DNA from: Paracoccaceae bacterium
GTDB taxonomy: Bacteria; Pseudomonadota; Alphaproteobacteria; Rhodobacterales; Rhodobacteraceae
Length of the DNA stretch: 64,000 nt
Direction: 5' to 3'
NCBI GenBank assembly: GCA_003567315.1
Contig: PWZT01000088.1
Span: forward strand, 25,610 to 89,609
Part shown: one piece after another, positions 19,742-23,669 of the stretch
Layout of the letters: every line of letters starts with the position of its first letter
How positions within the stretch are numbered: position 1 is the first letter of the stretch
The notes under the pieces: model-generated
What the model saw: only the letters and a program-made list of their open reading frames with translations
The model's database searches: none
Told to the model about the DNA's origin: nothing
Made by a program: the position numbers and the translations under genes

Positions 19742-20074
19742 ATGCAGCTTTATGAAGTCGAAGTGACCTGTCCCGATAAGGAAAGTGCACGCGAGATTGC
19801 CCGCGCTTGCCTTCAGGCGCGGCTCATCGCCTGTGCGAATCTGCTGCCCAAGGTCGAGAGCCTGTTCTGGTGGCAGGGCCAGATCGACTCGGAGAGCGAA
19901 GTGCTCTTGCGGATGAAGACGCCCGCCGCCAATTTCGCGGCGGTCTGCAGCAAGATCGGCGCCAGCCACCCGTTCGAGTTGCCCGCCATCATCGCGCTGC
20001 CCGCGCAAGGAATGGGGCCGGGTGTTGCTGACTGGGTGGCAGAGGAAACTCAGGCCGCGAAGATCTGCGACTGA
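19742..20074 (+). CDS. cutA: Divalent-cation tolerance protein CutA
   Basis: RLIACANL, SLFWWQGQI, HPFELPAIIA. Confidence 0.9.
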   Translation: MQLYEVEVTCPDKESAREIARACLQARLIACANLLPKVESLFWWQGQIDSESEVLLRMKTPAANFAAVCSKIGASHPFELPAIIALPAQGMGPGVADWVAEETQAAKICD

Positions 20075-20463
20075 TCGGCAAAGCCTTTCACCTCGATCGG
20101 ATTGCCAGACGGGTCACGAAAGAACATGGTCCACTGCTCGCCGGGCTGGCCTTCGAACCGCAGGCTTGGCGGGATGACGAACTCGATCCCGGCCTCTTCC
20201 AGCCGCGCGGCAAGCGCCTTGAAGCGCGCGACATCCAGCACAAGGCCGAAATGCGGCATTGGCACCATATGATCGCCAACCTTGCCCGTGGTCTCATTGG
20301 GAAAGGGTGCGCCCAGATGCAGGCTGATCTGATGGCCGAAGAAGTCGAAATCCACCCAGGTTTCCGTGCTACGCCCTTCCATGCAGCCAAGAACCTCGCC
20401 ATAGAATCGGCGCGCTTCGTCCAGATCATGAACGTGATAGGCGAAATGAAACGGCATGAGCAT
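20050..20463 (-). CDS. VOC/glyoxalase family protein
   Basis: FHFAYHV..LDEARRFYG, VDFDFFGHQ, PHFG, TMFFRDPSGNPIEVK. Confidence 0.88.
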   Translation of the reverse strand: MLMPFHFAYHVHDLDEARRFYGEVLGCMEGRSTETWVDFDFFGHQISLHLGAPFPNETTGKVGDHMVPMPHFGLVLDVARFKALAARLEEAGIEFVIPPSLRFEGQPGEQWTMFFRDPSGNPIEVKGFADQSQIFAA

Positions 20464-20600
20464 TGTTGGCCTCCTTCAACGTGACCTGCCTCAATCACTG
20501 GTGAAATGCAATCTGATATGAATTCGTTTGGCCTCAAACACGCATTCTCACTGCGGTTCTCTATGCATTGCCCACAAGTGCGCGCACAGCGCCTTGCTAC

Positions 20601-20629
20601 TGGACGCGCGGGCAGCACGCTCCTATAAG
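20601..20629 (+). promoter_or_regulatory. Candidate sigma70 promoter of the ileS leader
   Basis: TGGACG (20601-20606), 17-nt spacer, TATAAG (20624-20629); predicted +1 at or near the uORF ATG at 20637. Confidence 0.6.
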
Positions 20630-20636
20630 GCGGCGC

Positions 20637-20684
20637 ATGTCACGGATATCGATCATTCAGCGAATTAGCGGCCCGGCACTCTGA
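20637..20684 (+). CDS. Putative Ile-rich leader peptide MSRISIIQRISGPAL (15 aa)
   Basis: ATG TCA CGG ATA TCG ATC ATT CAG CGA ATT AGC GGC CCG GCA CTC TGA; four Ile codons directly upstream of ileS. Confidence 0.65.
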   Translation: MSRISIIQRISGPAL

Positions 20685-20704
20685 CGCGCCCGGAGTGCCG
20701 GGCC
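20670..20704 (+). promoter_or_regulatory. Perfect 12-bp GC-rich hairpin in the ileS leader, no U-tract
   Basis: GGCCCGGCACTC (20670-20681) / GAGTGCCGGGCC (20693-20704). Confidence 0.7.
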
Positions 20705-20750
20705 AGCCTTGGCGCCCGCCATCCAGAAATATCGCATGAGTGACAGACAC

Positions 20751-23669
20751 ATGACCGACACGATCGACTACAAAGACACGCTTTCCCTGCCCGAAACCGA
20801 CTTCCCGATGCGCGCAGGCTTGCCCGCGCGCGAGCCCGAATGGCTTGCGCGATGGGAGCGGCTGGGCATCTATGACCGACTGCGCGCGCAGGCCGAGGGC
20901 CGCAAGCCCTTCATCCTCCATGACGGCCCTCCTTACGCCAATGGCCATCTCCATATCGGCCACGCGCTCAACAAGGTGCTGAAGGATTTCATCACCCGCT
21001 CGCAGCAGATGCTGGGGCGCGATGCGCGCTACGTGCCGGGCTGGGATTGCCACGGCTTGCCCATCGAGTGGAAGATCGAAGAGCAATACCGGGCCAAGGG
21101 GCTCGACAAGGACAAGGTCGATATCGTTGATTTCCGTCAGGAATGCCGCCGTTTCGCCGAAGGCTGGATCGATGTGCAGCGCGACGAATTCAAGCGGCTG
21201 GGCATCACCGGCAAATGGGACGATCCTTATCTGACCATGGATTACCACGCCGAAGCCGTCATCGCCGATGAGTTCATGAAGCTTCTGATGAACGGCTCGC
21301 TCTATCAGGGGTCGAAGCCTGTCATGTGGTCGCCAGTGGAAAAGACCGCTCTGGCCGAGGCTGAGGTCGAATACCACGACCATACCTCTCACACCATATG
21401 GGTGAAGTTTCCCGTCACGGAGTTTGGGGACGCTGCGTCCGATCTGAGTATTTTCGGCAAGACGAAGCCCGTATCGGTGGTGATCTGGACTACGACGCCT
21501 TGGACAATTCCACAGAACCGGGCAGTCTGTTTCGGACCTGAGATTTCTTACGGGCTTTATGAAGTGACCGAAGTGATGGAAGGGGGTAAGGAAGAGCCGG
21601 GGGCACTGATCATTTTGGCTGACGCATTGGCGGAAAGCGCTTTGAATGCGGCGAAGGTGAAGGCCGAGCGCAAGCAGGACATAGCCCCCAAAGCGCTCGG
21701 CGCGCTGGTGCTGTCACATCCATTCCGCAGCGTCGAAGGCGCGCAAGGCGAATGGGATTTCGATGTTCCCATGCTCCCCGGCGATCATGTCACCGACGAG
21801 GCCGGGACCGGTTTCGTCCATACCGCCCCCAGCCATGGCGATGACGACTATCAGATCGGGCTTAAGCACGGCCTGCCCATGACCTATAATGTGCTCGAAG
21901 ATGGCAGCTACCGTGCTGACCTTCCACTCTTCGGGGGCGAGGTGATCGTCAAGCCCGATGGCAAGGAGGGCGGCGCCAATGTCGCGGTCATCAAGCAACT
22001 GGCCTATGCAGGCGCGCTGTTCGCAAAAGGCAAGATGCGCCATTCCTACCCGCATAGCTGGCGCTCGAAAGCGCCGCTGATCTATCGCAACACCGCGCAA
22101 TGGTTCGCCGCCATCGACAAGCCGCTCGAGGACGGGATGGGCACACATGGCGACACCATCCGAGCCCGCGCGCTCGAATCCATCGACAATCTTGTGACAT
22201 GGACCCCCCGGACCGGGCGCAACCGGCTTTATTCCATGATCGAGGCGCGGCCTGACTGGGTGCTCTCGCGCCAGCGCGCCTGGGGCGTGCCGCTGACCTG
22301 TTTCGTGAAAAAAGGCGCAAAGCCGACCGATCCCGATTTCCTGCTTCGCGACCCGGAAGTGAATGCCCGCATCGTCGCCGCTTTCGAAAAAGACGGCGCT
22401 GATGTCTGGTATGTGCAAGGATTTAAGGAACGTGTCCTTGAAAACCTTCACGATCCTGATGCTTATGATCAGATTTTTGACATTCTGGATGTCTGGTTCG
22501 ACTCCGGTTCGACCCATGCCTTCGTGCTCCGCGACCGTGAAGACGGCAGTCCTGACGGAATTGCCGATCTCTATCTCGAAGGCACCGACCAGCATCGCGG
22601 CTGGTTCCATTCCTCGATGCTGCAAGCCTGCGCCACCAAGGGCCGCGCGCCCTATCACGGGGTGCTGACGCATGGCTTCACGCTGGACGAAAAGGGCATG
22701 AAGATGTCCAAATCGCTCGGCAATACCATCGCGCCGCAAGAGGTGATTGACCAATATGGCGCCGATATCCTGCGGCTCTGGGTCGCGCAATCCGACTACA
22801 CGGTCGATCTGCGCATCGGCAAGGAAATCCTCAAGGGCGTCGCCGATAGCTACCGGCGGCTGCGCAACACCATGCGCTTCATGCTGGGCAATCTCGCAGG
22901 TTTCACGGAAGAAGAGCGCGTGGCGCCAGAGGATATGCCGGAGTTGGAGCAATGGGTTCTGCACCGTCTGGCGCAGCTCGATGCGCAGGTGCGCAAGGGC
23001 TACGCGGCCTACGACTTTCAGGGCGTTTTCCGCGAGTTGTTCGCTTTTGCGACATCGGATCTCTCGGCATTCTATTTCGACATCCGCAAGGATGCGCTCT
23101 ATTGTGATACACCCTCATCGCTGCGTTGGCGGGCTGCGCGGACTGTGCTGGACATCCTTTTCCACCGACTGACAACCTGGCTCGCGCCAGTGCTGGTATT
23201 CACGATGGAAGATGTCTGGCTCTCGCGCTTTCCCGGCGAGGGCTCTTCGGTGCATCTGCAGGACTTCCCCGATACGCCAGCGGATTGGCTCAATGAACCA
23301 CTGGCGCAGAAATGGGCGGGCATCCGGCAGGCGCGGCGGGTGGTAACGGCCGCGCTCGAAATTCAGCGCCGCGACAAGGAAATCGGCGCGTCACTGGAGG
23401 CCGCGCCGGTGGTCCATGTGCGCGATGCCGAGATCATGACCGCGCTGAAATCCGTCGATTTCGCGGATGTCTGCATCACTTCGGGCATGGTTCTGACTGC
23501 TGACCCGGTTCCGGCCGAAGCTTTCCGCCTGCCGGAAGTGCAGGGCATCGGCGTGATTTTCGAGCGCGCCGAGGGGCAGAAATGCCAGCGCTGCTGGAAG
23601 ATCAGCGCGGATGTCGGCAGCCATAGCCATCCGGGCACATGTGCACGTTGTAACGAGGCGCTTGGGTGA
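20751..23669 (+). CDS. ileS: Isoleucine-tRNA ligase (type 1)
   Basis: DGPPYANGHLHIGH, PGWDCHGLP, WTTTPWT, GTGFVHTAPSHG, KMSKS, C-terminal CQRC...CARC zinc site; alternative in-frame ATG at 20736. Confidence 0.98.
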   Translation: MTDTIDYKDTLSLPETDFPMRAGLPAREPEWLARWERLGIYDRLRAQAEGRKPFILHDGPPYANGHLHIGHALNKVLKDFITRSQQMLGRDARYVPGWDCHGLPIEWKIEEQYRAKGLDKDKVDIVDFRQECRRFAEGWIDVQRDEFKRLGITGKWDDPYLTMDYHAEAVIADEFMKLLMNGSLYQGSKPVMWSPVEKTALAEAEVEYHDHTSHTIWVKFPVTEFGDAASDLSIFGKTKPVSVVIWTTTPWTIPQNRAVCFGPEISYGLYEVTEVMEGGKEEPGALIILADALAESALNAAKVKAERKQDIAPKALGALVLSHPFRSVEGAQGEWDFDVPMLPGDHVTDEAGTGFVHTAPSHGDDDYQIGLKHGLPMTYNVLEDGSYRADLPLFGGEVIVKPDGKEGGANVAVIKQLAYAGALFAKGKMRHSYPHSWRSKAPLIYRNTAQWFAAIDKPLEDGMGTHGDTIRARALESIDNLVTWTPRTGRNRLYSMIEARPDWVLSRQRAWGVPLTCFVKKGAKPTDPDFLLRDPEVNARIVAAFEKDGADVWYVQGFKERVLENLHDPDAYDQIFDILDVWFDSGSTHAFVLRDREDGSPDGIADLYLEGTDQHRGWFHSSMLQACATKGRAPYHGVLTHGFTLDEKGMKMSKSLGNTIAPQEVIDQYGADILRLWVAQSDYTVDLRIGKEILKGVADSYRRLRNTMRFMLGNLAGFTEEERVAPEDMPELEQWVLHRLAQLDAQVRKGYAAYDFQGVFRELFAFATSDLSAFYFDIRKDALYCDTPSSLRWRAARTVLDILFHRLTTWLAPVLVFTMEDVWLSRFPGEGSSVHLQDFPDTPADWLNEPLAQKWAGIRQARRVVTAALEIQRRDKEIGASLEAAPVVHVRDAEIMTALKSVDFADVCITSGMVLTADPVPAEAFRLPEVQGIGVIFERAEGQKCQRCWKISADVGSHSHPGTCARCNEALG

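Follow-up and report, generated by a model that had tools for sequence, protein, structure and literature searches.

In E. coli, the aminoacyl-tRNA synthetase genes pheST are governed through ribosome stalling by pheM, a leader peptide enriched for the cognate amino acid. The pheM leader is led by a Shine-Dalgarno (SD) sequence and is followed by hairpins in the alternative pairings 1:2, 2:3 and 3:4, with a U-tract at the terminator. An actinobacterial study cites pheST as a gamma-proteobacterial example (PMC1262725). In Firmicutes and Actinobacteria, ileS, the gene for isoleucyl-tRNA synthetase (IleRS), is preceded by a T-box, a large structured RNA without an open reading frame (ORF) that senses the charging of tRNA-Ile directly (PMC1262725). 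Here we analyze the leader of ileS in a stretch of 64,000 nucleotides (nt) of DNA from a Paracoccaceae bacterium (assembly GCA_003567315.1, contig PWZT01000088.1), referred to below as the window. The gene is that of the T-box and the signal, tRNA-Ile charging, is probably the same; the alphaproteobacterial element contains a short upstream ORF (uORF). Compared with pheST, the likeness is a leader peptide with cognate codons before a synthetase gene, whereas the ileS element is probably leaderless, has one invariant candidate sensor codon fixed before a single hairpin, yielded no antiterminator and, in the genus of the window, is without a U-tract.

The accessible literature says little on the regulation of aminoacyl-tRNA synthetases in Alphaproteobacteria. 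One described element, uORFC-8-2, lies before cysS in Rhodobacterales; Brewer et al. (2021, PMC8632094) put it forward as a ribosome-mediated attenuator. It belongs to the same bacterial order and likewise has, before a synthetase gene, a conserved AUG-initiated uORF with cognate codons and two stems, but differs in gene and sequence, in having its Cys codons inside the first stem, and in a U-run past the second stem in some members. We rejected membership of the window's element in uORFC-8-2, which has tandem Cys codons before cysS, because the element has Ile codons before ileS; the two are analogous only. Neither that paper nor its supplement mentions ileS. The trpL/rnTrpL leader of S. meliloti is also a leaderless attenuator ORF of an alphaproteobacterium and is translated according to ribosome profiling (Ribo-seq; PMC10117765). 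It differs in its Trp codons and biosynthetic operon; it is reported to act by transcription termination and to release an attenuator RNA that is a trans-acting small RNA. The mycobacterial poly-Cys uORFs (bioRxiv 10.1101/834739) are reported to be leaderless, rich in one amino acid and amino-acid-responsive attenuators of downstream genes. They belong to Actinobacteria, use Cys and precede other operons.

In Caulobacter, small leader coding sequences (CDSs) precede trpS and ileS. The 'ileS leader CDS' of Caulobacter crescentus, CCNA_03934, was seen by ribosome profiling (Schrader et al. 2014, PMC4117421), in a study that used it only as a negative control; the text searched contains neither a sequence analysis nor a mechanism for it. 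It shares with the element of the window its small size, its place before ileS and an alphaproteobacterial host, and the two are presumably homologous. Caulobacterales genomes compared here (Brevundimonas and two metagenome-assembled genomes, MAGs) carry the module upstream of ileS. Beyond the Caulobacter mention, no description of an alphaproteobacterial ileS leader was found in the full-text literature, a scope outside which most subscription journals fall. A search of Rfam 15 gave no match at the element (20300–20900 at E <= 10, save for a fortuitous CRISPR-DR hit on the opposite strand) or at seven related loci at the gathering threshold, which rules out a T-box riboswitch or other known leader.

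The uORF of the window spans positions 20637–20684 on the forward strand and encodes MSRISIIQRISGPAL, with TGA as its stop (codons ATG TCA CGG ATA TCG ATC ATT CAG CGA ATT AGC GGC CCG GCA CTC TGA). Four codons specify Ile (ATA at 20646, ATC at 20652, ATT at 20655 and ATT at 20664), and 66 nt (20685–20750) lie between the end of the uORF and the ATG of ileS. Upstream, the sequence reads TGGACG at 20601–20606, a 17-nt spacer, TATAAG at 20624–20629, and 7 nt before the uORF ATG at 20637. An earlier reading of the window from its letters (the sequence-only reading) had proposed this promoter pair and 7-nt gap, which match base for base at the positions given, and a 15-codon ORF with these four Ile codons ending 66 nt before ileS, which direct reading confirms. 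Alignment upstream of ileS, which that reading had named as the check on its proposal, finds the ATG, the Ile codons and the stop conserved in the genus (17/17), in the family and across the class.

The -35/-10 pair is conserved across genera. In 17 genomes of the same genus, the leaders carry an invariant CTGGAC-N17-CCTATAA with CATG 6–7 nt past the -10 box. The -35 element of the window, CTGGACG (20600–20606), contains the CTGGAC identical in 17/17 of these leaders, 17 nt before the -10 element, CCTATAAG (20622–20629), whose CCTATAA is identical throughout the genus; in other genera the -35 site reads CTGGAC, TTTACC or CTTGCC. Across the family, the end of the -10 hexamer is 6–7 nt from the uORF ATG in 84 of 101 leaders. 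A generic promoter scanner called no promoter at the window locus, since TATAAG breaks its rule of a T at position 6 of the -10 box. Among relatives, the bases 3' of TATAA vary (G or C), and the AAGG within the -10 box of the window reads AACG, AAGC or AACC. Because the AAGG is not conserved, we read this segment as a promoter box and not as an SD, which agrees with the earlier claim that the uORF lacks one; no conserved SD precedes the ATG in the genus, the family leaders or the class-level loci compared. Since the conserved -10 box ends 6–7 nt before the ATG, the ileS mRNA is probably leaderless or near-leaderless, its 5' end coinciding with the uORF AUG to within a few bases.

The coding statistics of the family rest on 105 unique family leaders, 60 further loci included. 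All 105 leaders have an in-frame ATG 16–33 nt before CGA, compared with 5 and 2 for the other two frames, and in-frame stops are absent, compared with 46 and 49 in the other frames. The distance from ATG to CGA takes only the values 21, 24, 27 or 30 nt. The peptides are 14–18 residues long, end at TGA in 102/105 leaders and contain one to six Ile each, which amounts to 23.9% of leader residues. Their consensus is M-x(2-5)-F-A-I-I-I-R-I-[S/T/I]-x-P-A-L-stop, and in 17/17 fetched genomes of the same genus the ORF has 15 codons and follows the pattern M-x4-(I/V)-I-x-R-I-S-x-P-A-L-stop. Because insertions and deletions come only in multiples of three and the Ile codons vary synonymously, we read this as a translated frame. 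The comparison shows the uORF to be constrained as coding sequence and not a chance ORF.

Within the uORF, the core CGA-ATT-A (Arg-Ile; 20661–20667), our proposed sensing site, is near-invariant. CGA is kept in 104/105 leaders (the other has a synonymous CGC), ATT is kept in 105/105, and A nearly always comes next. In the ileS CDSs of the same organisms, Ile codons are used in the proportions 94.6/5.0/0.5% (ATC/ATT/ATA), and CGA makes up 1.6% of Arg codons compared with 99% at its leader position. The leader Ile codons other than the invariant ATT are 132 ATC, 89 ATT and 41 ATA; ATT and ATA together account for 50% of them, compared with 5.5% in the ileS CDSs. The three codons before CGA encode Ile in 72%, 77% and 54% of family leaders, with ATC, ATT and ATA swapping freely. 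In the window, this variable Ile-codon tract (ATA 20646, ATC 20652, ATT 20655) occupies 20646–20657 and shows synonymous ATC/ATT/ATA changes among relatives; the ATA at codon 4 is not conserved within the genus. Across the class, the peptide motif is R-I-[STI]-x-P-[AV].

Downstream of the core lies hairpin 1 (20670–20704), a perfect GC-rich stem of 14 bp (20670–20683 paired with 20691–20704) with a 7-nt loop and the uORF stop at the top of its 5' arm. The segment 20630–20770 folds at -57.1 kcal/mol, a z-score of -3.6 relative to shuffles. The spacer between ATT and CCCGG, the opening of the hairpin, is 5 nt in 105/105 leaders, and the same spacing recurs in divergent class-level matches retrieved with a looser pattern allowing 3–8 nt. 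When 99 leaders are aligned to a covariance model, 88% of the cells form pairs, and in 8 of the 14 stem pairs both partners change (63 cells). These values are not attained by any of 500 shuffles, and sliding the partners collapses the signal. An alignment of this kind is fitted to its model and so favors structure; the same picture comes from alignment-free pair counts taken relative to the base of the stem. A stricter cut-off kept out the reverse-strand matches (11) to the palindromic hairpin. Changes in the upper stem alter the C-terminus of the peptide (PAL, PAR, PAP, PVA), so the constraint on this part of the leader is on the RNA and not on the peptide. The loop is variable in the genus.

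The element is widespread. A covariance model of the genus element finds matches in 170 of 301 genomes of the order, in 84 of 112 genera and usually once per genome; 30/30 of the order-level matches fetched lie directly upstream of ileS. A family-wide model, run on a class-wide sample of 401 genomes, finds the element in 65, several of which carry two or three copies. A scan with the exact pattern, one genome per species, gives at least 120 loci, and 77 of the matches listed sit 98–199 nt upstream of ileS. Carriers among the matches listed include Ruegeria, Sulfitobacter, Gemmobacter, Frigidibacter and Cypionkella (Rhodobacterales), Agrobacterium, Rhizobium and Ensifer (Rhizobiaceae), Mesorhizobium, Bosea, Methylobacterium and Roseibium (other Hyphomicrobiales), Acetobacteraceae, Sneathiella, and Brevundimonas, Hyphomonas and Maricaulis (Caulobacterales). 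Outside Rhodobacteraceae the peptides often have only one to three Ile; they still share R-I-[STI]-x-P encoded through CGA-AUU-A, and their leaders retain the hairpin at its 5-nt spacing as well as a -10-like box shortly upstream of the ATG.

The module also precedes other genes. At 30 fetched loci, it lies 40–140 nt upstream of a stand-alone protein of 86–125 amino acids (aa) without a Pfam family. Examples are L205:2473-2921 (Azospirillum soli) and the loci L160, L188, L249, L252, L125, L127, L132 and L136, with a uORF encoding ..R-I-[ST]-x-P.. and a CGAATTA-N4-CCCGG hairpin. By sequence, this small protein gives sub-threshold matches only against Pfam, NCBIfam and the PDB; the comparison of folds is alone informative. 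Its AlphaFold2 model (pLDDT 90.4) is an ACT domain whose nearest match is E. coli IlvN with valine (5ypp, TM 0.72–0.75), and the model also resembles the small subunits of other acetohydroxyacid synthases. Going by this model, the protein is probably a regulatory subunit tied to branched-chain amino acids. In a single example (L172:3572-3605), the module, with the uORF MNQRINSARIMAPAL, is followed after 44 nt by a threonine dehydratase of 413 aa (PALP, E 3e-68, and ACT); the contig belongs to a MAG labelled Candidatus Marinimicrobia, a label that looks doubtful. Threonine dehydratase is the first enzyme of isoleucine synthesis. At a few loci (L130, L137, L265), the module is upstream of a P-loop protein of about 165–180 aa (Pfam AAA_33, E 8e-33). 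An isoleucine-responsive leader common to a small regulon would be expected to look like this.

Taken together, we consider it likely that the element is a translated leader peptide that regulates ileS by sensing Ile-tRNA. This reading draws on the coding constraint, the rare codons, the fixed geometry, the covarying hairpin and the link to ileS described above, and on the invariant codon for the cognate amino acid, Ile, standing before the IleRS gene. It is supported by the presence of the same module before threonine dehydratase and the IlvN-like ACT protein, and has precedents in the Caulobacter leader CDS, the cysS uORF and S. meliloti trpL. The sequence-only reading had already proposed an isoleucine-sensing micropeptide, and in that respect the comparison bears it out. 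The rare ATA of codon 4 and the Ile cluster of codons 4–7, which it had pointed out, do not form the core, the invariant candidate sensor being the ATT of codon 10 preceded by CGA. That reading had described the uORF and its Ile codons correctly and had missed the hairpin, which sits at a constant distance of 5 nt from that ATT and thereby gives the element its second hallmark. Nor is the element confined to ileS or to Rhodobacteraceae: the module occurs across the class and before other genes.

We infer that in this organism the uORF is translated from a leaderless mRNA, that Ile-tRNA is the signal and that the outcome is negative feedback. In the scheme we propose, a 70S ribosome would translate the 15-codon uORF from an AUG at or near the 5' end of the mRNA and meet the slow, rare pair, CGA occupying the P site and AUU the A site. 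The base of hairpin 1, 5 nt past the AUU and about 12 nt from the start of the P-site codon, would then sit approximately at the mRNA entrance of the ribosome, as judged from ribosome structures and frameshift signals, and the hairpin would stay intact or merely fray during the wait and be unwound once the ribosome moves on. If Ile-tRNA(Ile) is scarce, the ribosome would wait at AUU; if it is plentiful, the ribosome would advance, open the hairpin and terminate at the UGA inside it. The waiting time at AUU would thereby report the output of IleRS and be converted into expression of ileS, most sensibly in the direction of negative feedback, with low charging giving more IleRS.

The output step looks lineage-dependent, and no single mechanism for it rises above the level of a tentative suggestion. 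The number of U residues in the 8 nt past the hairpin 1 stem is 0–2 in most Rhodobacteraceae, whereas it is 4–6 in Rhizobiaceae and Brevundimonas, where the hairpin resembles an intrinsic terminator. Hairpin 1 could thus plausibly terminate transcription in these two groups alone. There, by analogy with the trp attenuator of S. meliloti, the leader may release a short RNA of about 85–95 nt. As an observation on particular loci, in Agrobacterium, Rhizobium and Ensifer (L177, L162, L220, L178) and in Brevundimonas (L206) hairpin 1 and its 4–6 U are followed by a second, GGCG..CGCC hairpin.

For the genus of the window, the preferred, if rather doubtful, candidate is a mechanism like that of ermC, in which a ribosome parked on the Ile codons would stop them from pairing with a segment near the SD of ileS. 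This segment, TCGCATGAGTGA (20732–20743), tentatively assigned, lies before the ileS start, has an SD-like GAG and is complementary to uORF codons 6–9 (20653–20663). In the minimum free energy fold of the ribosome-free leader, 20653–20663 pairs with 20732–20735 and 20737–20743. Constrained folding gives an accessibility of the ileS translation initiation region in the genus of 0.41 without a ribosome, compared with 0.59 with a ribosome on the uORF. Two other routes are alternatives: action of Rho on the spacer before ileS, which is compatible with a Rho loading site in being C-rich and G-poor (C/G 1.9 in the genus and 2.6 past hairpin 2 elsewhere, compared with 0.96 upstream of the promoter), and protection of the 5' end from RNases.

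Several results weigh against the Ile-tRNA-sensing attenuator or against its proposed outputs. In the constrained folds, accessibility of the initiation region does not differ between a stall at AUU and a ribosome at the stop codon (0.59 and 0.60 in the genus; 0.50 and 0.50 in other genera). The SD-masking duplex has a mean z-score of -1.23 relative to shuffles in the genus, with p about 0.10 for cognate over non-cognate pairs, and in other genera the signal is absent (z +0.22; Ile-codon tract with the downstream spacer, z -0.19). RNAalifold, constrained folding and duplex tests found no conserved antiterminator or alternative pairing, and covariation backs hairpins 1 and 2 only. On a MAFFT alignment of 86 sequences, in which the loop and upper stem were misaligned, RNAalifold recovers no more of hairpin 1 than its six basal pairs. 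A terminator scan found no T-run or intrinsic terminator after hairpin 1 in the window, where the tail is CAGCCTTG. The strict nucleotide invariance of CGAAUUA exceeds what coding needs, and a role at the RNA level is possible. Finally, simple kinetics predict that a hairpin left folded before a stalled ribosome, if it is also a terminator as in Rhizobiaceae, would lower ileS upon starvation, the wrong physiological direction. Either the stalled ribosome occludes the base of the stem or the logic differs from the one assumed.

The last point leads to the alternative that survives best, although we consider it unlikely: a coupling attenuator of the pyrBI type with the opposite logic. Here the hairpin would block expression, through termination or pausing, unless the ribosome on the uORF arrives in time, a stall at Ile would lower ileS, and IleRS would track translational capacity. 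A helix about 12 nt from the P-site codon can stay folded, and the base of hairpin 1 is at about this distance from the first base of that codon. The uORF spans the entire 5' arm and stops in the loop, as such coupling would have it, and the U-tract of Rhizobiaceae and Brevundimonas and the failure to find an RNA antiterminator suit it as well. However, most Rhodobacteraceae, the window included, have no U-tract. The scheme would also place an essential enzyme under positive feedback, at odds with a class-wide Ile codon at this very site, and threonine dehydratase and the IlvN-like protein should be induced, not lowered, when Ile is short.

A slightly less probable explanation is that the element is an RNA or DNA element and the ORF incidental: an operator recognized by IleRS or by some other protein, an entry site for RNase E beside a stabilizing hairpin, or an unrecognized riboswitch. 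RNase E prefers RN|WUU, a consensus that GA|AUU of the core matches. CGAAUUA and the CCCGG/CCGGG stem base are invariant as nucleotides, with almost no synonymous change, and the stem is kept while the peptide C-terminus varies freely from PAL to PAR, PAP and PVA. Yet an incidental ORF would not be expected to keep its ATG in 105/105 leaders, to lack in-frame stops altogether and to change length in steps of three, nor to vary synonymously at its other Ile codons or to hold a fixed distance between ATG and -10 across the class. The element also has no Rfam match, and the loop, where a mimic of the anticodon would sit, is variable.

We regard as very improbable that the peptide itself is the functional product, whether a trans-acting micropeptide like peTrpL or an arrest peptide sensing a small molecule in the exit tunnel like TnaC and SpeFL: the class-wide R-I-[STI]-x-P-[AV], the UGA stop in 102/105 leaders and a trans role of a leader peptide reported in S. 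meliloti (PMC7298713) would fit, but the N-terminal half is free to vary, residues past Pro-Ala shift with stem covariation, the conserved residues overlap nucleotide constraints such that selection on peptide and on RNA is inseparable, and induction of IleRS by free Ile makes little physiological sense.

Returning to the Ile-tRNA-sensing leader, the element belongs with the leader-peptide attenuators in having a uORF with conserved start, frame and stop and with cognate regulatory codons; mutually exclusive antiterminator and terminator structures were not found, and the window has no intrinsic terminator. The design, with a hungry rare-codon pair CGA-AUU exactly one ribosome-entry length (5 nt) before a hairpin, may be uncharacterized as such. 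A broader account, to which we give somewhat less than even weight, is that the module has been retained since early alphaproteobacterial evolution and reused as an isoleucine regulon comprising ileS, the IlvN-like ACT protein, threonine dehydratase and the AAA_33 P-loop protein, as an attenuator without an RNA switch in which the stalled ribosome itself, rather than an alternative fold, would decide the fate of the hairpin and with it termination, access of Rho or exposure of the SD. One common leader links ileS to genes of the isoleucine pathway. The element offers a testable account of ileS control across the class, including Agrobacterium, Rhizobium, Ensifer, Mesorhizobium, Azospirillum, Ruegeria and Sulfitobacter. 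With its invariant rare-codon pair, fixed hairpin spacing and no antiterminator, it would be a compact system for turning ribosome position into a regulatory decision. It is a candidate for a new Rfam or uORF family, could be used as a natural reporter of Ile-tRNA charging and may have a bearing on how cells respond to mupirocin and other IleRS inhibitors.

Between hairpin 1 and ileS, the window has the C-rich spacer (20705–20735) with TTGGCGCC (20709–20716), a remnant of hairpin 2 and the only part of it that the genus keeps. In most other genera hairpin 2 is present, GGCG..CGCG covarying with GGUG..CGCA (34 C-G, 19 U-A, 1 U-G and 0 C-A). We also considered pairing of the GGCGC after hairpin 1, in hairpin 2, with the GCGCC of the ileS start AUGUGCGCC; it was not significant (z -0.47) and was set aside. 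One Rhodobacteraceae locus (L079, G244:C1, about 3518457-3518700) has three tandem units resembling hairpin 1 (..GGCGCTCTGACCCAG..CCGGG..) between the uORF and ileS, which stretch the leader to about 190 nt.

The ileS gene of the window (20751–23669, forward strand) encodes 972 aa with the Pfam domains tRNA-synt_1 (E 1e-121), Anticodon_1 and zf-FPG_IleRS. An in-frame ATG at 20736, 15 nt before this start (20736–20750), would add MSDRH and is shared by one close relative only (L002); because it is not conserved, we take the start to be the genus-conserved ATG at 20751. In most Rhodobacteraceae (L034–L120), ileS opens with ATGTGCGCCGA (MCAD..) after the SD AAGGACGCC, whereas in the window's genus it opens with MTDT.., without the MCAD-type start and without hairpin 2. 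The divergent gene upstream, at 20050–20463 on the reverse strand, belongs to the VOC/glyoxalase family (Pfam Glyoxalase, E 2.4e-11) and is given as context only. The source assembly is a MAG of 102 contigs, 90% complete with 2.8% contamination. At C88:33-1933 of this assembly there is a second, partial ileS, with an N-terminus 93% identical and its own copy of the leader (76 bits), which looks like admixture of strains or species rather than a true paralogue.

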